Positions 26,390 to 53,575 of a DNA stretch of 61,763 bases are shown here, piece after piece; positions within the stretch are counted from its first letter, which is position 1, and the number at the start of each line of letters is the position of its first letter. Below the pieces are notes generated by a model. That model made no database searches. It was given only the letters and a program-made list of their open reading frames with translations, and was not told where the DNA came from. Source of the DNA: an uncultured Clostridia bacterium (GTDB taxonomy: Bacteria; Bacillota; Clostridia; Christensenellales; UBA1242); the NCBI GenBank assembly GCA_947595235.1, contig CANQEP010000002.1, positions 1 through 61,763 on the forward strand, read 5' to 3'. The position numbers were made by a program, and so were the translations under genes.

Positions 26390-26390
26390 A

Positions 26391-26416: not shown

Positions 26417-26433
26417 TTTCAAATTTTTCTTGT

Positions 26434-26467: not shown

Positions 26468-26597
26468 ATTAAGTCAAAATGCCGCAAAGATAAAGTGCAA
26501 AAACTTGCAAGAAAACAAAAATTCTTCGGTTTTTCGACAATTATATTTTTGGTTGGGCATGGGGCTATATTATAGAATAGGAGTGTTGCTACGCTTT

Positions 26598-27362: not shown

Positions 27363-27385
27363 TTAAGATATCAAGGGGAAAATTT

Positions 27386-28117: not shown

Positions 28118-28145
28118 AAAAAATGAGCGAATATGCTCATTTTTC
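28118..28145. terminator. Bidirectional terminator between the SSB-like and M16 genes
   Basis: AAAAAATGAGC-gaatat-GCTCATTTTT hairpin flanked by A and T runs. Confidence 0.7.
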
Positions 28146-29465
28146 TTTGAAAATTAGTTTTTTGTAGTCTTTTATGGACTTCACCTTTTTCTCATCAAAG
28201 TCACCCATGATTGTTATGTAGATGTCGTTATCCTTGTTAAACATCTTGTCAATAAAGTCTTTGCACGTCTTTTCGTTTGCCTTGTAAAGGTCCTTTCTTC
28301 GTGACTTTTTTGTGTTTTTATAGTATGGGTTGTTTTCGCGATAAACCTCGTAGGCGTCAAAAAGGAAGTTAGCGTCATCATCATTTGATGACGTGTCGGG
28401 CAAGTCCTCTTCGGTTTCATAGTTATATCTGAACGCAGATATGTCTCCACTTGAAACGTAGTCGGTTTTTAGGCGAGAAATGGAGTCACCAATTATATCT
28501 ATGATTTTTTCTACATTTTCTATTTGGCTTGTTTCAAAACTGAAATTGAAACTTATATTTTTTGCAATATGATTGCAATAATACGCGCTTGCGTGGTAAA
28601 TGAGCCCCTTTTCTCTCAGTTGATAAAAGTATAGTTCAGGCTTCATAAGAAGGTTCCATCTCACGATCTTGTGCGAAAAGTCGTTAATGTAGACTTTGGG
28701 GTCAGGAACATCTAACTTTATTGTAACAATGCACTTTATGGACTTGTTGTCGTTCTTTACTAGGTTTATGCCTTCCTTTGCAACTATAGGGTGGGGCTTG
28801 TAGGCAAGAATCTCGCCCTTTCTTTTTTCACTAATTTTAGAGAGAAAGTACTTTTTGCAAAGCCTTTTGATTTTATAAAAAGGAAGGGTGGAGGATGCGA
28901 ACATTATGAACTTGTTTTGAGTGAAGTGCTTGTTTTTATACTCCACAAAGTCTGCGGTTTTTAAGTTGTCAAGCACCTCATCCGTGCCGAGCAATTTTGC
29001 CGCTTCGTCTTCAATGCTCTCATACCTCTTTTCGCAAAAGAGATTGAAGTGCCGATACGTAAGGGTGCGCCTGTCTTTTTCACAGCGCATGGAACGTTCC
29101 TCTTTTATGACATTAGCCTCTTCTTTTATATTCCTTTGGTCAAATGTGGAGTTGAAGAGGAGGTCCGAGGCAAATTCAGCCCCCGCATCAAGTTTGCGGT
29201 TTGAGGTATAGTATTTGATAAGCATGAGAAAACAAGATGTTACCGCGTTAAGATAACAAACTTTGTTTCTGTCCTCAACAATTTGCTCGCGAGTTCGGTT
29301 TTTTGTGCCTTGAAAAAGCATATGCTCAAAGGCGTGAGGAAGGCCATTCTCAAGATAATTTGTGCCACAATGAAACCCCACATATATGGCACTTGCACTT
29401 CCACGTGGAAAATGCTTATAGACTATTGTTGCTCCGCTTGGGAACTTGTGTATTTTAACTCTCAT
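28137..29465 (-). CDS. M16 (pitrilysin/insulinase) family zinc peptidase
   Basis: 442 aa. The inverted zinc motif HxxEH is present in GLPHAFEHMLFQGT. The start overlaps the upstream stop (ATGA at 29462-29465). Confidence 0.85.
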   Translation of the reverse strand: MRVKIHKFPSGATIVYKHFPRGSASAIYVGFHCGTNYLENGLPHAFEHMLFQGTKNRTREQIVEDRNKVCYLNAVTSCFLMLIKYYTSNRKLDAGAEFASDLLFNSTFDQRNIKEEANVIKEERSMRCEKDRRTLTYRHFNLFCEKRYESIEDEAAKLLGTDEVLDNLKTADFVEYKNKHFTQNKFIMFASSTLPFYKIKRLCKKYFLSKISEKRKGEILAYKPHPIVAKEGINLVKNDNKSIKCIVTIKLDVPDPKVYINDFSHKIVRWNLLMKPELYFYQLREKGLIYHASAYYCNHIAKNISFNFSFETSQIENVEKIIDIIGDSISRLKTDYVSSGDISAFRYNYETEEDLPDTSSNDDDANFLFDAYEVYRENNPYYKNTKKSRRKDLYKANEKTCKDFIDKMFNKDNDIYITIMGDFDEKKVKSIKDYKKLIFKEK

Positions 29466-31354
29466 CTTGTCACCCTATTTTTTATACAAACTATAACAAT
29501 CAGCAAAATGACGTTGATGGCAATTAGCAAAATTCCAATCATTTGCACCATATTCCAAGAGTCTGCCTCAAGGTTATAGGTGTAGATGTAGCCCTCAATC
29601 TCGTTGCCCTCTTGGTCGTTGAACTTGACGTGGGTGAGGTTAGAGATTGTGTCGCGCTTGCCAATAACTTTCACCCTATGGTTTTTGTTAAGCGTCATGA
29701 TAACGTCGCTTGTGCTGTCCTTTTCAACAAAAATTTGGCTGTTATCTTTCATGACAGTCGCGTTTGGAATAATGCGGTCGGTTATTGAAGTGGTATTTCT
29801 CACCATGTCGCGGTCAATGTATCCAACTTGACTGCCGTCTTCGTTGATGCCCACTCTGAAGAACTTAACCTCGCGATTGCCACTTGTAAAGGAGTAGTCA
29901 AAGACAGTGCTCAAAATTTTTAGCCTTGTTGAAGAAGGTGAGGTGATTCGCGCAACAATGGTGTTTTTTATGCCAGCGTCTGCCTCTTCGACGGGGTCAA
30001 GATTGGTTGATGGCAATGAGTAGACAATTGTGTTTGGCTGAACGGTGATGTATGTTTGGTCGGTGGTGGTGTCCTCAAGGTCGCGAAGAGGGAAGTTGAA
30101 AACGTAGCCATAATAGTTGCTCGTTCCACTTGAGTACATGCAATAGTCCCAGCCGTGAACTGCCTCGCCCGTGCTTTGGTACTTGCCATAGCCAATAATG
30201 GCAAGGTCTGAGTCTGCAGTAATTGTTGCAACAACGTCGCTCGGCTCACTTGGATTGCCAAATGGAGTTTTTAGCATGGTTATTTCTTCACTTGTATGGC
30301 GATAGTCGAAACTCTCTTCGCCGTTTATAACAAGTTCAATTGCCTCGTTGACCTTTGTTTGACAAGTTGGTTCATCTCCCGAAAGAATATAGTATTTTAG
30401 CGCCTTCATTTCTTTTGAAACAAGCCCGATGATTGAGTCCGCGCCCGAAATATCAACCAAATTGAAATCGTCGTCAAGGGCTATTTTTTTGCTCGCATCT
30501 TCAGTTATTGATTGATTTGAAACAATATTATAAAACATTATGTTCTTGTTGGTTGAAAGGGCAAGGCAAGGAGAAGGGTAGTTGACCATGCTAAGTGACA
30601 AGATTGTTTCGCCCGCTTCAAATGCTGGTATACCTCCAACGCTGATTGCTTGACCAACGCTTGAAAGGTCGCCAGTCGGGTCAAGGCTTATTGAAACTAT
30701 GGACGACGAATTCGCAAAAAAGACGGCAATTTTTTCGTCAACAACTGCCACTTGAGAGGCTGTATAGTTACTTATTGGGGCGCTTTGTGGGGTGAAACTC
30801 TTATAGTCAGAAAGAGTTATTTCGCTCTCGTCTTCGCTCTTTGTGAGTTTTGCAATTTCAAACGTGCCTTCTTGTATGTTTTCAGGGCAGAGGAGAAGAT
30901 AACTAACACCATTTAGAGCCACTACATGAAGGGACTTGCAACTTTCAAGCGTTGTTAGGCTTGAAAAGTTAAAGTCAAATTCTTTGAAGCCCTCTTCAGT
31001 GCGCTCCCTTGCAATTATTGAGGCGTCCTCTTTTGAAAAGATGAGCATAATGTTTTCAAAGAACAAGATGTCGTCGGTCTTTGCCCTATAGTGGCTGTTC
31101 TCGGTGACATAGTTATTGGTCTTGCTGTCAAGAATCTTGATGGTCTCGTCTGCGCTGTCATAAACATAGAGAAGATCGCCGTGGACTCTGACAAGACTTG
31201 GCGTAACAAAGAAAAGACTGATGTCGTCGGTGCTGGCACTTGACAGCGCAGCATAGTTTTCTAAGGGTTTGCCCCTTAGAAAACTTAGCATTGCCGTTGC
31301 CAGCATGGATGCTACCAAAAATGTCATAACGAAGATTTTTTTGAGTTTTTTCAT
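29462..31354 (-). CDS. Secreted/membrane-anchored protein: N-terminal signal, beta-rich region, SH3b-like modules, C-terminal TM
   Basis: ATG at 31354 (MKKLKKIFVMTFLVASMLATAML), 11 nt after the giant-gene stop, with an AAAGGA RBS. The SH3b-like stretches end in ...VGYIDRDMV and ...EIEGYIYTYNLE. The C-terminal helix is MVQMIGILLIAINVILLIVIVCI. The extension to 31444 in the ORF track overlaps the giant gene. Confidence 0.7.
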   Translation of the reverse strand: MKKLKKIFVMTFLVASMLATAMLSFLRGKPLENYAALSSASTDDISLFFVTPSLVRVHGDLLYVYDSADETIKILDSKTNNYVTENSHYRAKTDDILFFENIMLIFSKEDASIIARERTEEGFKEFDFNFSSLTTLESCKSLHVVALNGVSYLLLCPENIQEGTFEIAKLTKSEDESEITLSDYKSFTPQSAPISNYTASQVAVVDEKIAVFFANSSSIVSISLDPTGDLSSVGQAISVGGIPAFEAGETILSLSMVNYPSPCLALSTNKNIMFYNIVSNQSITEDASKKIALDDDFNLVDISGADSIIGLVSKEMKALKYYILSGDEPTCQTKVNEAIELVINGEESFDYRHTSEEITMLKTPFGNPSEPSDVVATITADSDLAIIGYGKYQSTGEAVHGWDYCMYSSGTSNYYGYVFNFPLRDLEDTTTDQTYITVQPNTIVYSLPSTNLDPVEEADAGIKNTIVARITSPSSTRLKILSTVFDYSFTSGNREVKFFRVGINEDGSQVGYIDRDMVRNTTSITDRIIPNATVMKDNSQIFVEKDSTSDVIMTLNKNHRVKVIGKRDTISNLTHVKFNDQEGNEIEGYIYTYNLEADSWNMVQMIGILLIAINVILLIVIVCIKNRVTR

Positions 31355-31365
31355 AGATTTATCCT

Positions 31366-34300
31366 TTAGAAGTTGATGTTGGTTAGCACTGTAAACAGCG
31401 TTGAATCGTCTGTTACCATCTGTACTATGCAGTCCACAATGCATATGACAGTTGCAGCAATAAGAACAGCGCTTGCACCAAGTGTCATACCGGTGATCAT
31501 TGCAGCCAAAACGGCTGAAAGAGCGACCACCAACGCATCGGCGAGTGGGATAGGAGCATAATCCAAAATTGCAGTCATTATTGGTCCGTCATCATGATGT
31601 ATGTCAACGCTACTAATCGCCGTTGTGCCTTTTTTAAAGTCGCTTGTTGGCGGTGTGAACGAAACGTGCAACAACCTTACATATGTGCCAGCGTATTTTT
31701 CTCTTCCATTGAACATACCAACAACGAAGTTTCTTACATCTTTTGTCCAATGGACATCTCTTTCTGGAGCACGGTTTACATTTTCAGGGTTGTTGTCATA
31801 GACACTTGTAAGAGCAGTTCCCATTTTAGATAATTTGGCATTCATTGTTGCGTGTCTGACATAGTCGTAGCCTTTGTTGGCAGTCCAAACTGGCAATTTT
31901 TTATTACCGAATAGGTATGATGTGTTTATTTGTGGGGCAGAGTGCTCTTGCAAAACACATTCAGAAATAACAAGGTCATCGGCGTTGGCAAAGTCACCAT
32001 ACATTGTTGGAGCAATACCTTTTTTATAGTAAGCAAATGTGTTGACAATATACTTAACTCTAAAGAAATTCGTTATTTGTTCTTTAGCATTATCATAACC
32101 GCCAACGGCTTCAACCCAATTTACTCCCTTTAACTGCATATATCTTTGGACTAAGACTGTAATTACTTTAGAAGTATTGCTCCAATTACCAACAGGAATG
32201 CAACTATAATACTCACTAAGTAATCCATAGAATATTTTAAATAAGTCTATATTCAAATTTGCAATAGCCCTTGCCGTTTCGTCGCCATCCCAATCAAGCA
32301 AGTTTCCACTATTTGATTTTTCCTCTTCATCGGAGGCTTTAACAAATTTAGCATTAAAGTTTATACTAGCCGAAGTGCCAACATTGCCAGTGTTTGCCAC
32401 ATTATAAACTTCGCCTCGTTCACCCGAATCTCCGGCGGCAAGTGACAACAAGTAAATTTGTGCATAACCGGCAGCTGCTCTAATTGATTCATTTGTGTCA
32501 TGTTCAGAAAGCCATTCCAAAATATTTATTAGGTATTGTCCATTTTGGATGACCGCAACGTAGTATGCTTGAATCTCTTCATCGTGTTCGTGAACATCTG
32601 ATTGAGCATTCTTATTTTTACAAACAGATGCAGTTATATCTTCTATGCTGCTTACTGAACTACGACCGTTGCCACTTAATTTTATATGTTGTGTTTTTCT
32701 TCCAGTTGATATTGACACTTCTGAGTCAATTGCCATGGCAAGTTTTTCCCATTTTATAACAACAGTAACATCAAGGTTGCCAAGGTCAAGGTCTGGGTTG
32801 CTGAGGTCAACATTGTCGTAGAGTCCAAGGTGGAAACCAGTGAAGTCTGTGCTGTTAAATTGCTTGTCGCTTTGAGTTGTTGGAATATAACCTTCTGGTG
32901 CGATACCCATTGGAATAATTGCTCCATCTGTCAGCGCGGTACCGCCACGGCCTTCGTTCTGGGTTATTCTGACTGATGGGAATCCACTTGAAGTTGCAGT
33001 GACCTTTATTTTTATTTGAACCACTCCTGTGTTTGGGTCAATAACAATTCTTGGAATATTCGAACTATCAAATTCTTTATTTTCGGTTTCTCCATGGATT
33101 CTTACTGTAAATAGACCCTCCATCAGCCTAATTCCAGTATCTGCAAACTCAATATAGTTATAGATATTGTCAAGTTTTGGAGTGCTTCCATTCATTTCAT
33201 ATTGGTTGCTATCAAAACCACTTGTATAAAGTTGATCAACGCCCGACCTGTCAGTTGACCTTTTGATTTGACTCATGTCGGTTGTTTTATAGAACGCCAT
33301 GAGACCTTCATCGTTGTTTGACCAATTTCCGCTGTAAGGGTAGTTCAAATAATTCGATGCTCCGCTTGGGTTCTTGTAATTTGTTTCTGTTATTATGTTT
33401 AATACAACTGCATCTGCACTTGATGATTTATTGATCACATATGTGAGTTTCCCGTTTTGTTTGCTATAGAGAGGGCTGACCAAACTTCTTGGCACTCTTG
33501 TTGGATATGCATATGATGTGTCACCATTTTCGCCAGTGCCAATTATAGAGTTACCCTTGTAGTCATTCATAACATAGACATATGGGTCGTTTTCTTTAAT
33601 TTCTACTTTTGTTGTGGTTGTTGCGCCATTTCTGTCATTAGATGCCAAAGTTGTGGCGTATTCGTATGTTCCGGCAGATGGGTTCTTCCAGCCTGGGGAC
33701 ATTCTTATGTAGTCGGCGTAGGTGAGGTAAGAGTCAGATATGGATTCAGATACTTGGTTATTATTCAAATCTCCAAATCCATAATTAGAATCTGCATAGA
33801 CATGGACGCCCAATATTTCTGCAAGGTTGATTGTTATTTCATATGACAGAGCGGCATAGTAAACACAAAGTTCAACATCATTATAGACATTGTAAAGGTA
33901 GATGTAACTTGACATCGCTGTGATAGGGAAGCCGTCCATTTCTTTTGTTTCTTCGTTATAGAAACTCATTATGTTTGGAGAGAGCTCGTCATATTTCAAA
34001 GGACGGGCATCTGAAGTGAATGCGCTGGTTGGCTGGTCTTCGGCTGTTGCAAATGCTTTGAAGCGATCATCTTCGTCAAACGAGTTGATGTACTCTTTTG
34101 ACGTTGCCCAACCGGCAAGTTGAATGTATGGGAAGTTGATGTTTTGGATCTTTCCGTCAACACCTTGTTGAATGAGAAGTGAGCCCTTGAACTTTGACGA
34201 AACAACTTCATTTGTTGTCATCTTTGATTTGCTTCTGTCCGCCTCGTTGAAGATGTCTGGGTGCTCTGCATCGTCGATAAATTCGTAACTCTTTATGGTT

Positions 34301-46300: not shown

Positions 46301-49300
46301 CCAGCATCGTTCAATTCTTCTTCACTATCTGGATTGCCAACAAACCTATACAACTCATAGATATATTTCCCGTTTGAGGAAACATAATCTTTTAGGTATA
46401 TTCTGTGGCCAGCAATGGTATCATCAATTGCAACTTCTTGCAAAGAAAGTGTGTCCGAAACTTTGATGAACTTGCCGGTGGATTTATCCTTAATATAGGC
46501 AACGACTGGCTTGAGAGTTGTGCGGTCAAGAACCCAGAAAGATTTGTCCATGTAGTCGTTGAGTTCAAGGTTAACAAGCGTGTCTTTGAAGGCGTAGGTG
46601 TTAAAGTCATAGATATTGATGTCGTCTTCTTTCTCAATTGCCTCGCCAAGCACCTCAACATAGAATGCATTTTTGATGTCAAAGCAAAGGTTAACAATAG
46701 CGGCCTCATCCGCCTTGTGCCTTATTGAGAAGTAGAGAACTTGGTTAGGGTATGGAGGGCCCGCAAGCAAACTTACGCCAGGGAATCCCTCAATAACAAG
46801 GTTCTTGCTGGTGTAGTCAAGAGAATAGTATTGATTGAATTTTTGGTCATGAGATGCCAAAATGTATGCCTCATCCTCGCCATAGACATCATAGATGGAG
46901 AATCCCGGATAGATGACCGGAGAGTCAACGTCGTTGGTCTCGATATATTTTCCAAGCAAGGTTACCGAAACGCCAGTATTTGTCTTTTTGTTTGCCGACC
47001 TAACAAGGCTCGACTCGAAGTTTGGTATTGTTACCGTTGTTTGCTCGTAGTACAAGGTAAATGTTGCAGGCGTGCTTGTGCCTTGAAGGTTACCATTATT
47101 TTCAACCCTTATACGAGACTTAGTGCTAGGGTCAACAACATAACGAATGTTACCCGGCGTGCTGCTTGGGTCAACCAAATATCCATTATCGCAAACTGGA
47201 ACACCTTCGCTATACCAAGCCTTGCCACTACTTTCGTCAATGGTAAATGAAGGGACAGCGACATAGGTTGTTGCGTCAAAACTGAAAGTATTGCTAACAA
47301 TTGTCTTGCTTTCAGCCCCATAAGACTCTTTCAAATAGAGAGGGAACTCTGTCGCATTTTCTTTTTTCAAGTATGTTATGCTGTTTTCTTCTGAGCCTAC
47401 TTTTTCACCATCTTCAGGTCTAATAGCATAATATGTTGGAATTAGGAATGCACAATATCCAGTTTTTGTGCCTCCACGTTCACTTGGCGTATATTCAACC
47501 TTAGTTGTAGTTTTTGTGTCTGAGCCTCCACTTACATTGTGTTTCGTGTAACTGACAACTGAAACTCTGTCGCGGAAACTATTGCTGTTAGGGCCAACCA
47601 ATTCAAATGTGTAATAGACGCTTTCATCAATGCTAGCAGAATATTCATAGTAACGCATCCCACTGCCATCGTTAACTCCAATAAGTTGCATCGAACGTTT
47701 ATTTCCGTCCAAGGTGGTTGCATAAAGGGTATATGAAACTCTAATTAAGAAGTCAGTGCCAAGTTTTTTTGCTCCCGGCGAGAAGGTCTGTGTGCCCATG
47801 CTAATATTAGAATAGTAAACATTTTGCCATGTCGAAGTCGTCGTATCTTGATAGTGGCTGTTGAAGTAGTTGCTAGGCTTAAGCGAGGCTCCCACGTCAT
47901 AGGAAACGCGACCCGTTGAATCATAGAGAATATTGTCATCTTTAACATTATCGAATTTTGAGTCAACAACGCCATTTACATCTGATTGAATAAGTGTGCC
48001 AATCACTTCGCCACTAGACATTATGGTGCCATTGAATTCATGAGAAGAACCATCGCTTGTTTTATATGTATATTTGTTAACAACTTTTGTCTGGTCCTCG
48101 GTGTTCTCATCAGTTATATATTGTTTAACATAAAGTTCAATGGCTTCGCCAAGCGGACGAATATAATAGTAGCAAGAAGAAACAAGCCTTGCGCCCATAA
48201 TCTCACGATAAATATAGGCATCTCCACTGGTGGCAGTCAAAATGTCTGAGCCAAGCATGATACTTTTTTTATTATTGACAAGGTCATCAAAATTGGATAT
48301 TTGTTTGAAGTATAGGTTGTCTATTTCATCAAAAGTGATATTGCCGCTTGAGTCAGTCTTTTGAATGAACTGCTTTTTGGCAACAGGGGAGATATAGTAG
48401 AATTTGTTGCCACGCGCCTTAACATCATAGTAGACATATACTTCTTGAGACTCGGTATCATCTTTCGGATTGGTTTGTCTCATTTCAGTTGCATAGGCAG
48501 TAACAACAGCCGAAACTTCATTTGCCTCGCTCAAAAGAAGGTCGTCAATAACACTGCTTTGCTGAGTAAGAACTTCGCCATTTATTTTAATTTGCACATC
48601 AACTTTGGTTCCGTCAGATGTACTTGAACTTGGCGTTTCAACACTAATAGCACTTTCGTCCACTTTTGTGTATGTCAAAAGGTAGAAACTCTCTGGACCA
48701 CTATTTGGAATTTTGCGCGCGATTACAGTATATTTACCTTCATTTTCTACTTTTGTGGAGTTATAGTAATAAATCGTGCCACCGTTTGCACCACTTGCGT
48801 CACTCTTCACGCCGGCCTTGTGGCTGAACAAAAATACTTCGGTATCGCCTCCGTTTTCATATATGAGCGCCGTGCTGTTTTGGTTAACATGAACATTGCC
48901 AGATGTCAATGGTTGATTGTCAACCTTAAAGAACGAGTCAAGGTCGAGCGAAATATCCGCATCTGATTGGCTATAATTTTGGCTTGCGACATAAACTTTG
49001 CCATTCGCAGTTGTATAGTAAAGGGTTGGAGCAAAGTTGAGCGTCTCCATATTGTATCCAACAAGCACTGCATTTGAAGGCAACAAAATGGAGATTATAA
49101 CATTGGTTTGAATGTATCCAAACTCGTCCTCATAGGTGCTTATGCTCTTGATAATTTCATAGTCAACAAGCCCCTCCTGAAGTGGCATGATGCCAAGGCC
49201 CTCGATTTCATTTGCGCTACCTTTGTCTGTCGTTTGATACAAGTTGACAACAAGGTTGGTATCCTCGTTGTATTGAGTTCCAATAATGGCAATGTCTTGC

Positions 49301-51450
49301 CTGTCTGAGTAAAGAGTCTCTGTCGCTTTAAGAGACATGACCTTCTTTTCCACGCTATAGACAATATTTTTGTCCATGAGAGGGGAGTGGAAATTAAATG
49401 GCATCAACGATGACACCGTGGCAGTTCCTTCACCCATCGTGGCATTGTCCATCTTTTCAAAGTAGACATAGTCGTTCCACTCAAGACCCGAAACGCTAAA
49501 ATATGAGCCATTTTGCTCAATCTTTATTGGCTGAGTTCTATACTGCTGACCAATATCACTAAAATCATCCTTGATAGAATAGGAAGTGTCATTGTTCGGC
49601 CTTAAAGCGGTTATAAATTCGCCATTATTGAAGACACTAACATCAACAAATTTTAAGTGTTGGTCTGCGCCTGTAAAGAAGTTGTCGCCCGCAAAGAATG
49701 TTCCGCTAACAACAAACCCTCTAACTTTCGCCCAGTTGGCATAGAACTTGGTTGTGTGGAGTTTTGCGTGAGAGGTAACAACAATTTCGCTGATGACCGC
49801 CACTCTTTCAAGTTGATGGGTGCTGACGTTTTCTTCTTTCACCTCATAAATGTGGTCATAAACATAACTGGAAAGTGGTTTTGTCAGTTCGTTTGAAGGG
49901 TAGTGCATCATCTTTTGAGTCTCATTGTATTTGGCGTCAATTGATGTGTACAAATTTGGGTCTTGCGACCTTGCAATAGGAATGACGTCTTTGGTTAAAA
50001 CGTCATTTAAATAATCACTATAACTTCCAACAAAGTCACTGTTAAAGTTGCTGTATCTATAAAAGTCGTCTGTAATTCCCGTTGCACCGCCAGATGGCTT
50101 TTGACCGCCTTTTGGCAAAGTTTCCTCAATAACATTACTGTTTTCAGCATAGGTGTTCGTTGTCCAACTTTGAAGGGCATAGTTGTAGTCGGTCGTATAC
50201 TTACTATAGCGTTGAACAACCACTTGTCTGCCTTCTGGGAACGCACCCGTCAAACTCTTGACATACTCTTGATTGGTCTTGCTGTCGTATGCGCTTTGGC
50301 TAGAGAAGAAGTAGTATTTATCAGCATCATAAACAAGCCCGCCATAATCGGTCTCGATAGAGTTTGTGCTCCTTGCCGAGAAGGAGAGGGTATAGGCTTC
50401 GAAACTGACCGTGCTTGAATAAACAGACTCACCACGCTCACCTTGTAGGTTAGCGGGGAGTGCCTTGACTTTGAGATATCTGTTTTTAACGCCCTCTTCA
50501 AGGCGAGGGTTGAACCTTATAACATAGTTGCCGTCGCCGTCAACAAAGTATGTCATGTAGTCCTTTGGGCATTCAGTAAAGCCAGTAAGTCCCGCACCCG
50601 CAGTGGATGCCATACCGTTTCTGTAATAGAACTTGAAAACAGACTCACTCGTTGTGCTGAGTGGGTTTGTTAGCAAATTGTCCTCGGTCTCACTAGGCAT
50701 ATCAAATGTGACGCCACTGTCAAGAACCACCCTAAAAGTGTAGTACCTTCCGTCAACAACAACCTCGTAGTCTGGGAACTGCAAAACACTTTTGCTGGTT
50801 TTATATTTTTGTGCGACCTCATCAAAGCCCGTATAGAGCCTTATGATGCTGTTTTCTGTTTCTGTTCCGGTCGCCTCTTTGAAGCCATAAAAGTGTGGGG
50901 TGGAGTCAAGGTCACCAGAACCATTTGGCCAAGCAACAGAATCCTCAGAGCCAAGACTATAGTGCGCGATGATTTCTTCTTTTTTATTTGTGTAGATGGG
51001 CAGTACTTTTTGTTCTGAAGCGCCCGAGGCATAGTTCAGATAATACTTGAAGATATAATCGCTTTTGTCGCCATTAAAACTGCTAGAAAAAACGTCTACG
51101 GTATAGAAGTTGGTCTTGTAATAGATTTGGTCGTGCTCAATATCTGTGCCTGAAGTGTAATAGTAAGAGAGTGGCCATGTGAATGAGCCAGAATTTTCGT
51201 CGATAATATGAGCGCTGTCAATGCTATTTCCCTCAAGCGAATAAGGATTGAACGTAACAACAGGAGAGGCCAGCCTAAGCCTTCCCGACGAGTCATATGT
51301 TGCGTTTGTTGATGGCTCTTCGTCATTGAACAGTTTGCAGGCAGAAAAAGTGAACAGCGAAATAATCATCACAAAAAGCAATGAAAAAAGTGCCAAGAGT
51401 TTTGATTTCGTTTGTTTTTTAGCATTTGTAAGGCTCATACCAACTCCCAT
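31366..51450 (-). CDS. Giant (6,694 aa) cell-surface protein: lipoprotein-type signal, long non-repetitive beta-rich region, many degenerate Listeria-Bacteroides (InlB B-repeat/Flg_new-like) modules, distinct C-terminal domain, C-terminal TM helices
   Basis: A single 20,085-nt open frame. The N-terminus has K-rich n-region, a hydrophobic core and FSAC (Cys38). Recurrent modules have a G(Y/F)x(F/L)xG(W/Y)(Y/F) core and end in (A/V)x(F/Y). The last ~60 aa are strongly hydrophobic. An alternative start is the ATG at 51438, preceded by GGAG. Confidence 0.9.
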   Translation of the reverse strand: MGVGMSLTNAKKQTKSKLLALFSLLFVMIISLFTFSACKLFNDEEPSTNATYDSSGRLRLASPVVTFNPYSLEGNSIDSAHIIDENSGSFTWPLSYYYTSGTDIEHDQIYYKTNFYTVDVFSSSFNGDKSDYIFKYYLNYASGASEQKVLPIYTNKKEEIIAHYSLGSEDSVAWPNGSGDLDSTPHFYGFKEATGTETENSIIRLYTGFDEVAQKYKTSKSVLQFPDYEVVVDGRYYTFRVVLDSGVTFDMPSETEDNLLTNPLSTTSESVFKFYYRNGMASTAGAGLTGFTECPKDYMTYFVDGDGNYVIRFNPRLEEGVKNRYLKVKALPANLQGERGESVYSSTVSFEAYTLSFSARSTNSIETDYGGLVYDADKYYFFSSQSAYDSKTNQEYVKSLTGAFPEGRQVVVQRYSKYTTDYNYALQSWTTNTYAENSNVIEETLPKGGQKPSGGATGITDDFYRYSNFNSDFVGSYSDYLNDVLTKDVIPIARSQDPNLYTSIDAKYNETQKMMHYPSNELTKPLSSYVYDHIYEVKEENVSTHQLERVAVISEIVVTSHAKLHTTKFYANWAKVRGFVVSGTFFAGDNFFTGADQHLKFVDVSVFNNGEFITALRPNNDTSYSIKDDFSDIGQQYRTQPIKIEQNGSYFSVSGLEWNDYVYFEKMDNATMGEGTATVSSLMPFNFHSPLMDKNIVYSVEKKVMSLKATETLYSDRQDIAIIGTQYNEDTNLVVNLYQTTDKGSANEIEGLGIMPLQEGLVDYEIIKSISTYEDEFGYIQTNVIISILLPSNAVLVGYNMETLNFAPTLYYTTANGKVYVASQNYSQSDADISLDLDSFFKVDNQPLTSGNVHVNQNSTALIYENGGDTEVFLFSHKAGVKSDASGANGGTIYYYNSTKVENEGKYTVIARKIPNSGPESFYLLTYTKVDESAISVETPSSSTSDGTKVDVQIKINGEVLTQQSSVIDDLLLSEANEVSAVVTAYATEMRQTNPKDDTESQEVYVYYDVKARGNKFYYISPVAKKQFIQKTDSSGNITFDEIDNLYFKQISNFDDLVNNKKSIMLGSDILTATSGDAYIYREIMGARLVSSCYYYIRPLGEAIELYVKQYITDENTEDQTKVVNKYTYKTSDGSSHEFNGTIMSSGEVIGTLIQSDVNGVVDSKFDNVKDDNILYDSTGRVSYDVGASLKPSNYFNSHYQDTTTSTWQNVYYSNISMGTQTFSPGAKKLGTDFLIRVSYTLYATTLDGNKRSMQLIGVNDGSGMRYYEYSASIDESVYYTFELVGPNSNSFRDRVSVVSYTKHNVSGGSDTKTTTKVEYTPSERGGTKTGYCAFLIPTYYAIRPEDGEKVGSEENSITYLKKENATEFPLYLKESYGAESKTIVSNTFSFDATTYVAVPSFTIDESSGKAWYSEGVPVCDNGYLVDPSSTPGNIRYVVDPSTKSRIRVENNGNLQGTSTPATFTLYYEQTTVTIPNFESSLVRSANKKTNTGVSVTLLGKYIETNDVDSPVIYPGFSIYDVYGEDEAYILASHDQKFNQYYSLDYTSKNLVIEGFPGVSLLAGPPYPNQVLYFSIRHKADEAAIVNLCFDIKNAFYVEVLGEAIEKEDDINIYDFNTYAFKDTLVNLELNDYMDKSFWVLDRTTLKPVVAYIKDKSTGKFIKVSDTLSLQEVAIDDTIAGHRIYLKDYVSSNGKYIYELYRFVGNPDSEEELNDAGLYELLDYEKDVYVWSSSSTALEEVRTYDIHSYYQGLDGTLYLNSGIDTDVNIKCYGMENFNYDAQFSENSMFNYDEVLFSGVTYAYRTKASQVIDEATNNLYGYWLDRGLGLLDAYDSHDAYFLSGREAAVFFASPVVTLSDDGGHNYIYRFKEWKIYQRRNSEVIFYNPNVISTLENDSLTNAILRFTSNEAGYYVIMPVYQRVYSIDIGTAVLDGALNQGGSIDVMYDIGSASADVDNRDERDLYIYEYLKTNYGGREGYYYGDIDGSAFLYFTGEFKNETEIVGSSAAYPVFEVRDDIFAIRFHQKYDTFETGNLTLYFQVKYNATKTRITAIRPVDVIQRFEKDKPGVVMLTHVDDAFNYSGNIVNFDGSEYSYGDTTAMQAAYNGQGNYYYKSGRGVVKAEEFNEMISYAFNSYFYYDTVGGDAAQGYKSTPLFYNKGANSLYAFDMSQFDDATKSVTGGLTFLMYLYVWNMHHNNELFPSDSREAFEDLYDDFKNRNDAYDEFNEEFWNIDLDSPGILIDSLRTDHVANIDTRIFTEMTTFEDGVIGGEYRYSVNGSLHDGELVKDKDGNIYSTQQFKSVYIDRDAYVLLEVTPARGYRVEGWYKCLYDADTDTWYTTDEKVENTEYIYSDEVLHGYYNPILRQYFYVTQFCVELDDTGTYIYYSQYDPDKGFINEAIVPDNMLDSVRGYYININENQGTSRRPNYIRVYKNYANNYYFDVGMHQSPVDTDVYTPIEMTHFDAINRDIPSSGEKSYTLSDYPVFRRMETSYDKDGVAVETEHFYRVRETGNVEVKENKLIIHKLHSNVRYVAKFIEIYNQYIFAEEAEDSGIDVLAVYYNNSDPRKADIDTVNEQMVIRTNNLGVNKTSPSRDANGTMGYPGDDQVSKLDEDYMRLYKDETKTARTSSIFSNTYERTVDGIKRTFYAYDNASKDMYAILAQDDGFGSETAIGNGKRATTPTYRVNAEDDEDLDGKLVLNSMYFDIETTVFILVQVKAEADLTIHSLGLNSNYTIEPIFAPTEDFIIYNKTAPQSEKVDYVYYIFRVTYNRDPENEYASYIVHPNRGESMAFDILAGNYLDFYNNYFVTYIVDRETREYSFDEGVDYVLHDDGLSLGLGAGSRTSRFLKQLKDNNVITQSIYDKYNDKDLRFKNISELLDAMNKDMKDPDCLKVGYVTIKPGTYDKDYAGDIDSDKLSKSEDIFAALKAIYKIDESGNVVKNESDIPLRQFKNPYLIWSGQQNFINLSTIPVYTYTVQAVTLDDTSPTINIDANGRAIMQSSSVKQFTLKNSVYASAGINGRTFLGSATEISLTDPFVYFNPTSITDFYGTTAIKFYKRFDNLEYANDNTNTTILPDLPFASNTMVLFSGTEEVDNSDPNADRYEFAGWYEQKYDRDTNKWSPLALMSTSIDIPYMSLATADTVILAVYKKVVNVTMTYNKDEGTVDLNGSLDSLGHALSVEDDGTKVTIKGDFYFDAELPLTIVPNGGYRFDNLTYNDGILFNPALDSSAVYYSEFSDAYPNGVQRSYYSVRLNAMLRMILPIKEALFRSTDTTDVEMNINFKKIVLVYINVENYVYGTGSAYTYTFSGFDFGLYSVHGSTVHEYARTNGRESGSRQFVTNSDSTQNDVVCAVNGTTLYMYGYFDYDISGELVIVTFKDEYCTTSVNEWYINGYTTATNSSSDEGDGSTKNVFDTHIYKDATGKEVNDEFTITFLYDTGDPNIDNYNGGDRFALKESNSVFYMKAEVVTETQDLVITHSFADSIDSAAIAGYPAGTMGYNADVYSMLSYSGDYYQDGSIVSTNGSFVVKNKQVLSFGKDALISIAVNSEYVLIGSGASRRLYVFVGWYRLGFNIQEGVSTAEFIQKNPVLQYRPATGAYEAKYIRAYEVDNTNVNETYGSVSYVTQQHLPNAGITDSTITHTVYGYYDDGHDAFNYALSGATITLQATPNNGYFILEDSLKVEDQNGSPVEFTTTEIDGVRNLSFVATKNVKVYVNFTRGCTVILTQTLYSSINMELDGSTLTNGNYVAITVNGKSMTNYEFVVQDGTVVLFSAINSTIYYFVGFFINGNIVSTVDVNDRVVYGTEYSEEVNSNLIIEARFVPYVTVNVSSVISETNSYISNFMAELSYLDLRTGNNAVYSYSTGMSSFISIPAGTQVTLKETRPDTAESNPYSFVEWSVVDTSNSIVKHISNSKEAVLGVLTDLRQAIDSSRGGYVKIAAIYTSSTVISISKEITATDEDIGTYAYNGVLSDLFKSFFDIKLTYTDIYGAQRSVSLGSKLSVEGILAKRDTSITFEVWISNIVSDRYYVSSLNTTAKSITTNVVNDGLKQTLTFNNASSIDIKAIFLPASFITLSKVLNGTLTDASELDVNYEISSSDTGLVKASGSVSSQAKIQLIRGDVLTITVTTPNGYTYHGIYENGALYSRNDTATIQLVDNKNINYTIVFSSSASLEGEIVVEGAGESVQSGMKFNILGTFIEENDGQVINRFEQIVLDENQTSFSGRRLDTSKRLILVVDNIDGYSFKGFTITVDGVKRTGTVNSNSYGTVCTIIINSGESVHVTASFERVYPINYTVTTLDGEGASTSRGGYLSNQQYSFVKGQSSISFTVNVISGYTLMGVYANGSYVTSSRNVVFNIPNGTTSLDIEVKFVKNVTLSLRVAVAGTSDANEIKNKLGLNPSSFSVNIGGNTRTFSTANSMYLNYSSLQVGNNVTLSIGYNSRTRFTASDGITYVFDGWYVYDGTSVATSDFAVAYNSSMEFNVNGNLSLIAKFVPEDDQNNYTVSTERSYEFFNGTTTTVLSAFAGSVVNQVTSYNGDDYLFIGYYTKLSDSSLGYLKITNSYNANLSKYTGVYPSLIARFVKIVKVTNNFNRVGVVGSYNEVNLAYSADTAYGGLGTSNGTLTTLAGAQVNSTLYAFYGYNISPSTNNIGSVTGDVSNNVQVDKYGIITNVNVVNNVINSNASVSSSTSSASQLNINNIEETARATFSVENGAGSVLYVTILDELGNYKQFEVSEENNDHVEYVKTGSKITLSFDLDKNTEFIEYRIVNNSTYISKDVVYTYYYTTRSSSSLYITARFSTLYTATLVGNDDSKGEVKVERNLSNYVFDIHAHDGFVIDKVYALDINSVTSLDDIPSLGVDLLTASAGEYGALLSSLSIDRNNTTSPASDDLSRTILTSAKITMSLRKDIAIYVTYVPVVKINLQIGDSSTSNMFYYFDSVINLSSLKAFIDYIISQNASFASIYEYGASTFTFEGNIITEDDIDLTGIIEATIHLNRQSEGKVKVYVEGINKTENGQLLYNAPKDGLTVTLGASGLVVGKITGMDAFNYQTALATPIYAQDTNNYYKFIGYYTDSYALGGRLVTESSNYAFTFDDFNPSRSTFSRDTDGNIIIYAVFEEIVKEVVFEASYVSPSFTLSIDGATLTPTANIQTYKAFSTSTNVGYLSYKLDGNKLVISYPLSLCDASATFKVTAVDFSLSSDTTDPLLEIVGVDRFYEKTISAGTGNKINDVYLRFKQYTNANGEILGSIYNPEVEINLRNMLSGDVITASAVNLYLIEFAYNKNDVFEIVLSLTRISSDGATQSVEYIPIASSSNYHTFNNALISYKAEEGTSITARIDLNDYTGGSVLLLGSDEVMLSDLFAGRTFGDNNLPTDDAKAGGDVRQWWADALDGKFSPIIQVFNHLVERGDLTSISFTASKNLSILADCFNCVSFNRRYPVAVLYTPGTLDSSHGDDASISIRSSSRDNKKGDGFTLDFTEENTTVKVNLKQGQSTSSYTSRFYTDRGTYNTSSGQNDINIAFSTFYSAMVDASTKGIFGEMTFRFVIVPKLTLVASSRRLRKEYVEQDDPSGDSNTDLENYIKNAFPEITDNRFTKDNIYYAKYDSTGESLVTSYAKLEENLSFKAGEKISLRAEIPEGYYFQGFVIADSLYHTTLNILEFGGAKMNSSLSTYTVLRASRYEIIDSKRYAFADLQLYGSVEIYAHYEARPYIVTIKSYEFIDDAEHPDIFNEADRSKSKMTTNEVVSSKFKGSLLIQQGVDGKIQNINFPYIQLAGWATSKEYINSFDEDDRFKAFATAEDQPTSAFTSDARPLKYDELSPNIMSFYNEETKEMDGFPITAMSSYIYLYNVYNDVELCVYYAALSYEITINLAEILGVHVYADSNYGFGDLNNNQVSESISDSYLTYADYIRMSPGWKNPSAGTYEYATTLASNDRNGATTTTKVEIKENDPYVYVMNDYKGNSIIGTGENGDTSYAYPTRVPRSLVSPLYSKQNGKLTYVINKSSSADAVVLNIITETNYKNPSGASNYLNYPYSGNWSNNDEGLMAFYKTTDMSQIKRSTDRSGVDQLYTSGFDSNQYEMNGSTPKLDNIYNYIEFADTGIRLMEGLFTVRIHGETENKEFDSSNIPRIVIDPNTGVVQIKIKVTATSSGFPSVRITQNEGRGGTALTDGAIIPMGIAPEGYIPTTQSDKQFNSTDFTGFHLGLYDNVDLSNPDLDLGNLDVTVVIKWEKLAMAIDSEVSISTGRKTQHIKLSGNGRSSVSSIEDITASVCKNKNAQSDVHEHDEEIQAYYVAVIQNGQYLINILEWLSEHDTNESIRAAAGYAQIYLLSLAAGDSGERGEVYNVANTGNVGTSASINFNAKFVKASDEEEKSNSGNLLDWDGDETARAIANLNIDLFKIFYGLLSEYYSCIPVGNWSNTSKVITVLVQRYMQLKGVNWVEAVGGYDNAKEQITNFFRVKYIVNTFAYYKKGIAPTMYGDFANADDLVISECVLQEHSAPQINTSYLFGNKKLPVWTANKGYDYVRHATMNAKLSKMGTALTSVYDNNPENVNRAPERDVHWTKDVRNFVVGMFNGREKYAGTYVRLLHVSFTPPTSDFKKGTTAISSVDIHHDDGPIMTAILDYAPIPLADALVVALSAVLAAMITGMTLGASAVLIAATVICIVDCIVQMVTDDSTLFTVLTNINF

Positions 51451-51511
51451 ATTGCCACCATAATTTAGTTTCTGCTAGGTGCACAATATATTTACTATAA
51501 ATACTTTACTT

Positions 51512-51539
51512 ATTTTAGCATATGTTGTCGACAAAGCAA
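51512..51539 (-). promoter_or_regulatory. Candidate sigma-A promoter for the giant gene
   Basis: The minus strand reads TTGCTT, a 16-nt spacer, then TGc-TAAAAT, about 60 nt upstream of the start codon. Confidence 0.4.
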
Positions 51540-51805
51540 AACAAATAGGGCTTTATGAGAAAAATTTTTAAATTTTTTTTAATGTGGACATAGTGGTGTC
51601 TGGTTTTGTTTTGTATTCTTTATTTATCAAACATTTGTTCGAATATCGCAAAAAAATTTTTGGCAGTCATGGGTCAAAGTTTTGTGAATATGAGTTTAAA
51701 CTCAAATCAAAAGCGCGAGAAATAACAAAAATTTTGAGCATAAGCGCGCAACGCACTTGACATAATTCGACAAAATATGACAAATATAAAAGGAGAAAAA
51801 GACAA

Positions 51806-52501
51806 ATGACAAACACACTAAAAATGCAAAGCATAACGGAAGAAAATCATGTTCAAAAGGAAGAGATTGAATCTTCAAAAAAACGCAAAATTCAACAAGA
51901 AAACATGAAAAAATGCACAAAAAACACCAATTTTTGCCAAGAAAGTTGCAAAAATAAACTTTTTCTGGGCGATGAAAATCTGCAAAAAAAGTTGTTTGTC
52001 AAAGTGCTTTTGTCTGCAAACAAGACCATTCCAAACACCATTGCCATTCTTGACAAGATAATAGAGGAAAGAGCGTCAACTTGCATATCGTCGTCACTTA
52101 TCTATTCAAGTGCTCTTTCAACCTATGGCGAGATTGACCATGTTATTGACCTTACTGCAAGAAAGGACAAACTGCTAAACATCTATGTTATGGGCAAAGA
52201 ACTTCTTGAGTCTCTTTCGGGCGACCTAAAAGACATCGCTGTTTTGAGGTATCAAAAAAGATACCAAGTTGACGACATTGTCCTTGCTCTAAATTCCTCT
52301 CAAAGAACAATATACAGAAAATTGAAACTCATTGACGAAAAGTTGGTGCGCTACATGAACCTCAACAACTGGAACATAAGTTTTCTTGAAGACCAAATCA
52401 GTAGCGAGCCGTGGCTAAAATCTCTCTATGAGAAAAAGTATAATGAAGAACTTGTCAATATGTCACGCGCGGAGTGCAAAAAGAAAAATCCTAGTGCCTA
52501 G
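51806..52501 (+). CDS. Sigma-70 region-4-like HTH protein (ArpU/RinA-like late-regulator architecture)
   Basis: 231 aa. The C-terminal part DIAVLRYQKRYQVDDIVLALNSSQRTIYRKLKLIDEKL matches the region-4 / SxRTxYRxK pattern. The N-terminal ~60 codons overlap a copy of the A-rich element, so the start is uncertain. Confidence 0.5.
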   Translation: MTNTLKMQSITEENHVQKEEIESSKKRKIQQENMKKCTKNTNFCQESCKNKLFLGDENLQKKLFVKVLLSANKTIPNTIAILDKIIEERASTCISSSLIYSSALSTYGEIDHVIDLTARKDKLLNIYVMGKELLESLSGDLKDIAVLRYQKRYQVDDIVLALNSSQRTIYRKLKLIDEKLVRYMNLNNWNISFLEDQISSEPWLKSLYEKKYNEELVNMSRAECKKKNPSA

Positions 52502-52522
52502 GATTTTCCTTTGGGGAGTATT

Positions 52523-53575
52523 TTAAAGTAAGTCATCGTCGTCAACAACTTCGTAGTTAGGAAACTCGGGCTCAAGATTGGCGGTTGACCGGCTGGGCTT
52601 TTGGTCAAGAAAGTTGGTGTAAAAAACCGGCTTTCTAACAAGCGTTTGCCCGTCAAGGTCGTCGAGGTTTCGAATTTTGCTACTAGACTTTTTCTTGGCG
52701 GTTGTTCGCGATTTCTTCTTTGGCGCAGGGCTCTTTGCTTGGCCATTCAACTCTTCGCCAAGTTCTTTTTCAAGTTTGTCGTTTTTACTCTTGCGATTGG
52801 ATATTAGAAGTAGCACAAACACAAGTATTATCGGCAAGCAAATCATAACAATCAAAATTATTTTGACCGTGTTGTTCATGGCAAAGTTTGCGTCCGACTC
52901 GCTCATCTCTTCATCGTCAGTGGATGGCGGTGGGGTCTCTTCAATACCTTCGCTGTTTGGCAAAATAGTTGAAAGATTGCTAACCCTCTCTGAGTAGATA
53001 TAGCCCTCAAAGACGCTTGTTGGGTCATATGGAGGAACAAAGACTGCATAATACCAAACATTTGAAACTCCGCCCGAAGGAACTTCACCATAGGTATAGG
53101 CAACATACTTTATCTGCCTTGTGTTTTTTGAAATAACGCATTCAACCTCGCTTTCAACACTTGGCGCAGACATAATCTGCGTTCCACTCGCAGACGAAAT
53201 ATCAAGGGTCGCTCCGCTAAGGGTGGGGTTGACTGGAACGAAAGACACCTCTTTTATGGTGTCGAGTGAAACATAGCCAAGAGTGTCGCCGTATCTCACT
53301 TTTATTGCGGGCGAGGTGGAGTCATCAACAATGATAACAAAGTATGTTTCGGGAACGATATAAAAGACATTGCGAAAAGAAACATCATTGATGTTAGATG
53401 TCTTAAAGAAATAACACTCACTGCCAACTTTTGCATAGCGAACACTTTGCCCCTCGGCGTAGTATAGAGGTTTGCCTATGTAACTTCTTATTGCCAGTCC
53501 CGAAAAGAATGTTGCAAAAAGTGGAAGAATAATCATCATTAGCGACACAAACAATTTTTTGATAAAGTTTTTCAT
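52523..53575 (-). CDS. Bitopic membrane protein with SH3b-like ectodomain modules and a basic/acidic cytoplasmic tail
   Basis: ATG at 53575 (MKNFIKKLFVSLMMIILPLFATFF). The SH3b-like stretches end in ...RYGDTLGYVSLDTI and ...FEGYIYSERV. The TM helix is VKIILIVMICLPIILVFVLLLI. The tail is K-rich and ends in VVDDDDLL. The architecture parallels 29462-31354. Confidence 0.65.
   Translation of the reverse strand: MKNFIKKLFVSLMMIILPLFATFFSGLAIRSYIGKPLYYAEGQSVRYAKVGSECYFFKTSNINDVSFRNVFYIVPETYFVIIVDDSTSPAIKVRYGDTLGYVSLDTIKEVSFVPVNPTLSGATLDISSASGTQIMSAPSVESEVECVISKNTRQIKYVAYTYGEVPSGGVSNVWYYAVFVPPYDPTSVFEGYIYSERVSNLSTILPNSEGIEETPPPSTDDEEMSESDANFAMNNTVKIILIVMICLPIILVFVLLLISNRKSKNDKLEKELGEELNGQAKSPAPKKKSRTTAKKKSSSKIRNLDDLDGQTLVRKPVFYTNFLDQKPSRSTANLEPEFPNYEVVDDDDLL

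Follow-up and report, generated by a model that had tools for sequence, protein, structure and literature searches.

What does a gut bacterium do with a gene of 6694 codons, and which of the genes around it serve the same end? The question is posed by a 61,763-nt stretch of DNA from an uncultured Clostridia bacterium (contig CANQEP010000002.1), referred to at its full length as the window, in which the giant gene is followed on the same strand by genes for a membrane protein with SH3b-like units (SH3TM) and for an M16 peptidase. A first-pass annotation took these three genes, together with a second SH3b/transmembrane (TM) protein and a helix-turn-helix (HTH) regulator on the far side of the giant gene, to be one surface module. 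The comparisons described here support a smaller unit: the trio of giant, SH3TM and M16 appears to be a real, conserved and very rare operon of an uncultured gut Firmicute lineage. Its parts, in the order of transcription, are:

31366-51450, minus strand: giant gene, 6694 codons
29462-31354, minus strand: SH3TM, 630 aa, predicted type-I membrane protein
28137-29465, minus strand: M16B-type zinc metallopeptidase, 442 aa
28118-28144, both strands: hairpin terminator, bidirectional, common to the convergent SSB and M16 genes, with the TGA stop of M16 inside the stem

The giant gene and its two partners

The position of the giant open reading frame (ORF) and its stop at 31366 on the minus strand had been read correctly, as had the joints between the cistrons. 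The TAA stop of the giant gene is followed by 11 nt containing a ribosome-binding site (RBS; AGGATAAATCT, with AGGA) and then by the ATG of SH3TM at 31354, and the TGA of SH3TM overlaps the ATG of the M16 gene in the tetranucleotide ATGA (29462-29465). The database model of the giant begins at a second ATG, at 51438, preceded by a GGGAG RBS, and has 6690 aa. No internal terminator was found within the trio. The hairpin beyond it (AAAAATGAGC-ATATTC-GCTCATTTTTT, with six core pairs and an A-U extension) has a folding energy of -12.9 kcal/mol (z -6.4) read on the minus strand and of -12.4 kcal/mol on the plus, so that the terminator placed by the annotation at 28118-28145 is indeed bidirectional but of moderate strength, not strong. 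A scan for consensus terminators missed this hairpin, probably by extending the stem into the A/T runs; folding confirmed it.

The arrangement recurs in related genomes, whose synteny was examined. SH3TM lies 9-14 nt upstream of M16 in five clusters of M16 proteins that are 34-40% identical (P0002, P0003, P0005, P0006, P0007), and in the same five the genes for SSB and a polysaccharide deacetylase (PDA) lie convergent downstream of M16, as in the window. Since P0005 (L175) and P0007 (L006) are about 80% identical, the five clusters and the window make at most six lineages (the loci being the window, L004/L005/L172, L006, L007, L173 and L175), within which the gap between SH3TM and M16 ranges from -4 to 14 nt. 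Three contigs extend far enough to show what precedes SH3TM, and in each it is the 3' end of a giant gene (at least 1228, 2074 and 2204 aa); a 24.9-kb human-gut contig of the L005 species lengthens its giant gene by at least 10 kb. Two more distant fragments of giant C-termini (L178, L179) also have an SH3TM-like gene next to them. The adjacency of giant and SH3TM is thus seen in six lineages as well (the window, L005/L172, L006, L007, L178 and L179), with gaps of 11-25 nt, or 115 nt in L179, where the SH3TM call is an architecture read from the sequence, tblastn giving no hit at E 1e-3.

The three genes also diverge together. Between the window and L004-L007, housekeeping proteins are 89% (ParE), 76-78% (ParC), 72-75% (SSB), 69-78% (deacetylase) and 67% (MurG) identical, as against 34-39% for M16, 34-38% for SH3TM and 27-32% for the giant. 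The pairwise identities of M16 and SH3TM track each other (80/82 for L006 and L175, 36-47/36-58 for the other pairs). That a cytoplasmic M16 should diverge as fast as its surface partners suggests a functional coupling beyond the shared ancestry of the neighbourhood. Judged by their tight spacing, their synteny and their equally fast rate, giant, SH3TM and M16 would seem to behave as one conserved transcription unit, in agreement with the co-expression first proposed for them.

The giant protein begins with a lipoprotein-type signal (MIISLFTFSAC) whose cysteine is residue 34 in the 51438 model and residue 38 if translation begins at the ATG at 51450. The signal has a Lys/Arg n-region, an uncharged h-region and a lipobox of the form [LIVMFWSTAG]2-[LIVMFYSTAGCQ]-[AGS]-C, with the cysteine within about 15-40 residues. 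A lipobox of the PROSITE type with its cysteine is present in seven orthologous N-termini, those of four of the five full-length orthologues and of three N-terminal locus fragments (window, P0014, P0015, P0016, L092, L094, L114). An exhaustive HMMER search of 1.84 billion representative proteins, with the last 1,100 residues as the query, found a family of 14 proteins. Besides the window protein, four members are full-length (6,151-6,639 aa). Their alignments with it are collinear and span 4,800-5,900 positions, at about 35% identity for three of them and about 23% for one. The N-terminal half is better conserved (37-49% in many 200-aa bins) than residues 3600-5600 (21-32%). Compared with itself, the protein gives only 10 weak matches, all of them in aa 3700-5200, the region into which divergent InlB-B-repeat-like units fall (summed Flg_new_2 signal). 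Most of the protein is a non-repetitive predicted ectodomain; in composition the protein is poor in Cys and rich in Y, S, T, N and D. In the C-terminal module, conserved in 14 sequences, a globular domain (motifs DLVxxQxxLxEH..PQxN, WxADKGYxYY and GxFNGxxKYAGTYxR) is followed by a hydrophobic stretch rich in Gly and Ala, whose length varies, and by a terminal ..N(L/I)N(F/W). No match to a solved structure in the PDB was found with single sequences or with profiles, including one of the N-terminal 3,300 aa; none to Pfam for the N-terminal 3,300 aa or for the C-terminal module and its homologues; and none to PHROG with the giant. A polymorphic toxin is unlikely, the C-terminal module being the conserved part and not the variable part, and a defence system was set aside for lack of a PADLOC match.

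By hydropathy, SH3TM starts with a signal peptide and ends with a TM helix and a cytoplasmic tail of 5-6 residues; between them lie a beta-rich region and then about three SH3b-like units. Its start at the ATG at 31354 agrees with the MK that is invariant in three orthologues. The N-terminal 350 residues are beta-rich, with weak matches to Tako8 and NHL propellers, and are possibly propeller-like. The last 250 residues are the best conserved: three units of the GW/GY type, a GYIYTYNLExDxW segment, the TM helix and a KN(K/R)(V/I)(T/A)R tail, among which the juxtamembrane segment and the helix are conserved most. The Pfam family SH3_3 scores 17.1 bits on the window protein against a gathering cut-off of 27; by E-value it is found in all four members of the SH3TM family, at best with 1.4e-5. 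Word-indexed protein searches with the single sequence and with a four-sequence profile returned, among the matches listed, the query alone; a metagenome scan with the SH3TM alignment found one locus, of the same species as L005; and a scan of IMG/VR found no match.

The third gene, too, is identified as first annotated. Peptidase_M16 (PF00675) scores 45.1 bits against a cut-off of 22.3 and M16_C (PF05193) 35.6 against 23, giving in 442 aa the two-domain layout expected of a family chain of about 400-450 aa. The zinc motif is HAFEH, at aa 44-48; H44, E47, H48, E116 and E123 are invariant in 10 homologues, and E123, the third zinc ligand, lies 75 residues past H48, within an E(x)6E region. The product is therefore predicted to be a peptidase with all its catalytic residues; among solved structures it comes closest to MPP-beta and to a bacterial processing protease (3hdi). 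There is no gene for a second M16 subunit in the window. Neither a signal peptide nor a TM segment is present in the M16 of the window or of any homologue, the N-termini being non-hydrophobic, and the enzyme is therefore predicted to be cytoplasmic. The subfamily is rare, with 10 homologues in 5.8 billion clustered proteins; when the alignment was run against 185,579 species genomes, the matches listed were only generic M16 genes of at most 30% identity. The contexts of nine of the 10 homologues could be fetched. Contigs of up to 435 kb carry an M16 of the P0002 type, and in L177 an ORF of 137 aa (34-447) upstream of a distant M16 (29%) resembles the C-terminal end of M16_C and may be a remnant or a second subunit.

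The divergent promoters and a shared box

The regulator gene is divergent from the giant gene across an intergenic region of 355 nt, as had been noted. The features of this region are:

51806-52501, plus strand: regulator, 231 aa, sigma-70 region-4-like HTH protein
51512-51539, minus strand: candidate sigma-A-type promoter of the giant operon, TTGCTT, 16 nt, TGcTAAAAT (extended -10; TGNTAAAAT)
51519-51531, minus strand: 13-nt box TCGACAACATATG, within the spacer of the giant-operon promoter
51767-51779, plus strand: second copy of the box, TCGACAAAATATG, in the regulator promoter region

The HTH of the regulator is confined to sigma region 4. Sigma70_ECF scores 17.2 bits (cut-off 21.1), the Pfam hits r4, r4_2 and ECF lie just under their cut-offs, phrog_36 ("transcriptional regulator") matches at 2e-5, and the family profile matches region 4 of the SigF type in the PDB (E 6.5e-5 to 2.6e-4) over profile positions 80-147. 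Searches of Pfam, NCBIfam and the PDB profiles found no match to sigma region 2, and I therefore call the protein a sigma-region-4-like regulator, not a sigma factor.

The intergenic DNA has a mean identity to its orthologues of 61%, where the flanking proteins have only about 40%. Some 55 nt before the giant start lies the candidate operon promoter, which is kept in L092 and L094, L114 having TTGAAA-17-TGtTAAAAT in its place; TCGAC and TATGxTAAAAT are invariant columns. The regulator promoter region (51755-51795), directly 5' of the regulator RBS, reads ACTTGACA-N4-TCGACA..TATGACAAAT-ATAAAAGGAG. Each of the two divergent promoters has one copy of the 13-nt box, oriented with its own gene. The box pattern TCGACANNWTATG (TCGACA-NN-WTATG) has exactly two perfect matches in the window, compared with 0.04 expected by chance. 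It is conserved at both sites in L092, L093 and L094 and on the giant side only in L114. A scan of the other fetched loci (about 2.4 Mb in total) found no copy, not even upstream of the large terminase genes considered below. By this pattern the giant operon and the regulator gene have a common putative cis element, and I infer that the regulator binds it. Two further conserved features of the region are an inverted repeat, GACA-N6-TGTC, at 51583-51602 (TAGACAGCATTATGTCTA in L094), and a block at 51614-51640 that reads CAAA(T/C)GTT(T/C)G and then ATAAA..AAGAATA.

A particle gene cluster in a chromosomal setting

The left 28 kb of the window encode Obg, PheS/PheT, a nucleoside phosphorylase, DeoC, TsaB, RimI, a Mur ligase, Ddl, a WYL regulator, DUF1538/PII, MurG and subunits of a ParE/ParC-type topoisomerase. 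From this gene content the window is chromosomal rather than phage: it is part of the chromosome of a low-GC Bacillota organism. GC content and skew over 28-54 kb are no different from those of the flanks, and the window has no terminal repeat and no tRNA. That the whole window might be a phage is ruled out by the housekeeping genes of the left 28 kb and the absent terminal repeat. Beyond the regulator comes SH3TM2, and after it a set of phage-like genes, unnoticed in the first-pass annotation, runs to the end of the window:

52523-53575, minus strand: SH3TM2, 350-aa bitopic protein
53747-55175, plus strand: large terminase (TerL), T4-type (Terminase_6N, tblastn), 2.3 kb from the giant start
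55767-57710, plus strand: portal protein (P22_portal)
57713-58411, plus strand: scaffold-like protein
58421-59611, plus strand: major capsid protein (capsid_maj_Podo, NCBIfam, 5e-81)
after the capsid gene, plus strand: two small proteins
60526 to the window end (61763), plus strand: virion protein of about 500 aa, start only

PHROG matches in the window and L093 (major head protein, virion structural protein, tail protein) agree with these calls. A 75-aa ORF between terminase and portal (55571-55798) has a CxxC...CxxC zinc-ribbon pattern and no PHROG match. The window TerL is split by a change of frame at about 54785-54795 into an N-terminal ORF of 367 aa and a C-terminal ORF of 140 aa in a different frame. 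Its relatives have a single ORF of 475-485 aa with eight extra codons (KIEALIDS) at the break point (frame comparison with L092), and either the gene is a pseudogene here or the assembly is in error at GACGGACGG.

About 35 close relatives of TerL (58-84% identical) are present in IMG/VR contigs, many of them from the samples that gave the M16 contigs. The gene order of L092, L094 and L114 is that of the window: giant N-terminus (minus), regulator (plus), SH3TM2 (minus), TerL (plus), portal, scaffold and capsid. Elsewhere TerL directly follows ParE-ParC (L103/L109) or a rho-methylase pair (L107), and in all the particle cluster sits among housekeeping genes in at least four chromosomal contexts of related genomes. 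In none of the four contexts looked at was an integrase or a replication gene seen to the left of the cluster; its right end falls outside the window and past the ends of the loci. For L103/L109 the identities are 63-65% in TerL, 65% in ParE and 54% in ParC; where TerL stands at 81%, ParC is at about 77% and ParE at 89%. Because TerL diverges in step with housekeeping genes and the cluster is found in housekeeping contexts, it looks like a vertically inherited, domesticated element similar to a gene transfer agent (GTA), or a long-domesticated prophage. A podovirus-like GTA, FpGTA I, has been described in Faecalibacterium as a 10.5-kb operon of ten ORFs (PMC12946183).

To which side, then, do SH3TM2 and the regulator belong? 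SH3TM2 is a bitopic protein with a signal and a TM helix, as annotated and as hydropathy confirms: a signal or anchor, two SH3b-like units, the helix and, on the cytoplasmic side, a tail of some 90 aa whose last residues are ...FPNYEVVDDDDLL. SH3_3 is found by E-value in two of seven members of its family (best 4.2e-5), with no Pfam hit on the window protein, and a scan of IMG/VR with SH3TM2 found no match. For the SH3b-like calls made at the outset, SH3_3 matches turn up in both families, but the Pfam score is below the cut-off for the one window protein and missing for the other. Nor is "paralogous" the right word for the pair, except in the sense of distant paralogues at most: hhalign aligns them over one SH3b-like unit with a probability of 17% and E 1.4e-3. 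A motif before the helix is common to both, as stated; its wording, (E/F)EGYIY, was not exact, the true core being EGYIY (IEGYIY in one and FEGYIY in the other).

Profile hidden Markov models place a relative of SH3TM2 beside TerL, and divergent from it, in 14 of the 35 TerL loci, and relatives of the regulator in nine. Two of these loci have something other than a giant gene upstream, a different gene in L120 and tuf-rpsF-ssb-rpsR in L126. Since SH3TM2 and the regulator stay with TerL, even where the giant is missing, I regard them as companions of the particle cluster, and the role of flanks to the giant module in which they were first cast passes to the TerL-portal-capsid cluster next door. 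The end of the SH3TM2 tail, ...FPxYE(I/V)(I/V)DDDDLL, is conserved (52523-52800 in the window; L092, L094, L114). In L126 the SH3 units are lost, and the TM helix and acidic tail (YEIFDEYDDKEL) are kept beside TerL, which suggests that the tail may be a docking peptide for a cytoplasmic partner.

Explanations for the locus

The account that I prefer, to which I would give roughly an even chance, is that the trio constitutes a vertically inherited, lineage-restricted envelope operon of an uncultured clade of low-GC gut Bacillota. The giant would be exported by Sec and lipidated at its conserved cysteine (residue 34 in the 51438 model), and it may be held in the membrane also by a C-terminal hydrophobic hairpin, leaving about 6,600 residues, mostly unique beta-rich domains, on the cell surface as a coat or an adhesin-like structure. 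SH3TM would lie beside it in the membrane, where the two may pair through the conserved helix and juxtamembrane segment, and would tie the assembly to peptidoglycan through its SH3b units; the docking role ascribed to it from the beginning is plausible. Transcription would proceed from the conserved extended -10 promoter with its 13-nt box. The same box in the regulator promoter suggests that the two units are co-regulated, probably by the regulator, which like SH3TM2 would originally have been a companion of the adjacent podovirus-like, GTA-like cluster.

The first-pass annotation differs from this account in what it would have the peptidase do, namely mature or shed the giant protein. M16B enzymes degrade or process peptides broadly, and they enclose short or unfolded peptides in a dimeric closed chamber. 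The M16 of the trio has no export signal and is predicted to be cytoplasmic, and giant and SH3TM are almost wholly extracytoplasmic, so that their folded ectodomains should be beyond its reach. It would act in the cytoplasm on a precursor, on a released signal or tail peptide or on failed export intermediates.

Several observations count against the envelope operon as I have drawn it. The argument for the trio is built of sequence and synteny, and no match in Pfam, PDB, PHROG or PADLOC indicates a function. The synteny covers the whole neighbourhood (SSB, PDA, ParC), and conserved order by itself could mean shared ancestry. AlphaFold gave models of low confidence, both for SH3TM from a single sequence (pLDDT 39) and for the C-terminal module of the giant with 11 sequences (pLDDT 41). 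Anchoring at both ends is uncertain, since the hydrophobic stretch of that module differs in length between orthologues and in some of them has only weak hydrophobicity. The place of the box, within the promoter spacer, is one typical of repressor sites, and its link to the regulator is a putative one. As to the peptidase, the P0004 M16 (L001-L003) has no SH3TM or giant gene within 10 kb and lies between a gene for a DUF4932 protein and divIC/yabQ/yabP, and the three most distant M16s (27-29% identical) have unrelated small genes upstream. The peptidase can therefore occur uncoupled from the other two.

These last observations lead to a narrower explanation, in which giant and SH3TM by themselves are the functional unit and M16 is a general cytoplasmic peptide-degrading housekeeping enzyme that is the last gene of the operon in most members. 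Its cytoplasmic location fits, as does the broad activity established for M16B enzymes in general, and the annotation itself had recognised that an M16 orthologue which is a conserved housekeeping gene independent of the giant would tell against the module. The uncoupled P0004 M16, of one lineage, is nested within the group (52% identical to L173). On the other side, M16 is joined to SH3TM by a stop/start overlap or a gap of at most 14 nt in six lineages, and it diverges as its operon partners do (34-40% identity, against 72-89% for housekeeping genes). The subfamily is, moreover, as rare as the giant family, its 10 homologues among 5.8 billion proteins being accompanied by none closer than 30% among the matches listed from 185,579 species. 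I consider M16 as a bystander somewhat unlikely. In L001 the DUF4932 protein upstream of M16 (8996-9871) has an HExxH motif (VIHEFLH), and M16 is convergent with the sporulation or division genes divIC-yabQ-yabP.

The particle genes admit explanations of another kind. Everything from M16 to the capsid and tail genes might be one phage-derived unit, with the trio, the regulator and SH3TM2 accessory to a podovirus-like GTA or defective prophage and switched on with the particles, perhaps in preparing the envelope for particle release, in donor/recipient recognition or in superinfection exclusion. The constant order from giant N-terminus through regulator, SH3TM2, TerL and portal to capsid in the window, L092, L094 and L114 speaks for this, as do the many more loci in which regulator and SH3TM2 accompany TerL, the box common to the regulator and giant promoters, the domesticated look of the cluster (its rates against ParE and ParC, its housekeeping setting, the four contexts free of integrase on the left) and the example of a podovirus-like GTA of the same gene content in Faecalibacterium (PMC12946183). 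Yet the particle cluster occurs without the trio in L103/L109, L107, L120 and L126, the box is absent upstream of TerL, the giant has a lipoprotein signal and no PHROG match, and the window TerL is broken where the giant operon is intact. Nor was any of the trio found in IMG/VR contigs, N-terminal fragments of the giant beside TerL excepted. Such a unit is on balance distinctly unlikely, and the more specific proposal that giant, SH3TM, M16, regulator and SH3TM2 are a co-regulated, undescribed envelope module of a gut Bacillota podovirus-like GTA, for the exit of particles through a thick cell wall or their docking to it, seems to me improbable. That the trio is the recently acquired cargo (a moron) of an integrated temperate podovirus is scarcely credible. 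Terminase, portal and capsid do lie 2.3 kb from the giant start, and IMG/VR flags related contigs as viral; the evidence to the contrary is strong. In GC content and skew the region is like the chromosome, the trio keeps its synteny with SSB, PDA, ParC, ParE and MurG in relatives whose ParC is only 76-78% identical, it has no PHROG hits, and related particle clusters go without it, so that recent prophage cargo is ruled out on composition and synteny.

How does the envelope operon compare with known systems? No described system matching the trio was found, and what is new here is a giant envelope-anchored surface protein with an undescribed set of partners. Ebh of S. aureus and the giant extracellular proteins of Lactobacillus kunkeei are surface proteins of several thousand residues, chromosomally encoded and fast-evolving, that carry an export signal at the N-terminus and a membrane segment at the C-terminus. 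The window giant resembles them in its size, its predicted extracytoplasmic location, its export signal and its C-terminal membrane segment. Unlike Ebh-type proteins with their near-identical tandem repeats, it is almost non-repetitive and collinear among orthologues; it has a lipobox where they have a YSIRK or plain signal; and it combines a lack of similarity to solved structures with dedicated SH3b/TM and M16 partners. The peptidase shares with M16B enzymes (MPP-beta, Bacillus halodurans BH2405/3hdi, B. subtilis YmxG, YmfF/YmfH and AlbE/AlbF) the HxxEH motif with distal Glu, the M16 and M16_C domains in about 440 aa and the cytoplasmic location, but it belongs to a tiny divergent subfamily, its gene is translationally coupled to those of an SH3b protein in the membrane and of a giant lipoprotein, and no second subunit is adjacent. 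The GW/GY units of SH3TM, of about 60-70 aa and with sub-threshold to moderate matches, are like the SH3_3 wall-binding modules of lysostaphin-type and NlpC/P60 hydrolases; in contrast to these, SH3TM has no catalytic domain, its units stand in one chain between a beta-rich N-domain and a C-terminal TM helix, and their binding to the wall is a prediction.

The likeness of the regulator to TcdR, the small, autoregulated sigma-like protein encoded next to very large genes in the C. difficile pathogenicity locus (PaLoc), is one of outline only: a small sigma-region-4 protein beside a giant gene, with an element common to both promoters. Unlike TcdR, the window regulator has no detected region 2 and no similarity beyond region 4, and unlike the PaLoc, the giant promoter looks sigma-A-like with the box in its spacer, and the product would be membrane-anchored, not a secreted toxin. 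The TerL-portal-scaffold-capsid-tail operon, of about 10 kb and flanked, in the stretches looked at, by neither replication nor lysogeny genes, recalls FpGTA (PMC12946183) and defective prophages of the PBSX type. It is likened to FpGTA by size and gene content only, not by sequence, and its TerL is frame-shifted in the window.

Giant bacterial proteins are rarely understood, and this family, 6.2-6.7 kaa long, non-repetitive and collinear, is without structural or Pfam similarity beyond a few B-repeat units. Its two fixed partner genes and conserved promoter element offer experimental handles in the active site of M16, the lipobox cysteine and the 13-nt box. GTAs of gut Firmicutes have only just been recognised; should operon and cluster prove to be linked in function, an envelope accessory module of a GTA would be at hand for the first time. 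Even unlinked, the operon would stand for a surface structure that is well defined and evolves rapidly, in a gut lineage of humans and herbivores that is absent among the matches listed from species-representative genomes.

Some minor features of the housekeeping side of the window may be added. An Rfam scan of all 61.8 kb found no family above threshold, including in the 980-nt stretch 5' of pheS (1605-2588); Firmicutes usually have a T-box leader upstream of that gene. The part of the left flank nearest to the trio is:

24149-28108, plus strand: conserved genes for p746, PDA and a two-OB SSB, syntenic with the trio in relatives

The SSB is of the PRK05813 type, with two OB units. In the p746 protein (24149-26389) a single TM helix, at about aa 525-545, separates a long cytoplasmic half, acidic and of low complexity, from an ectodomain of about 200 aa. 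Although its gene is kept in synteny in relatives, the protein is only about 40% identical where ParC is 77%, diverging as fast as the trio.

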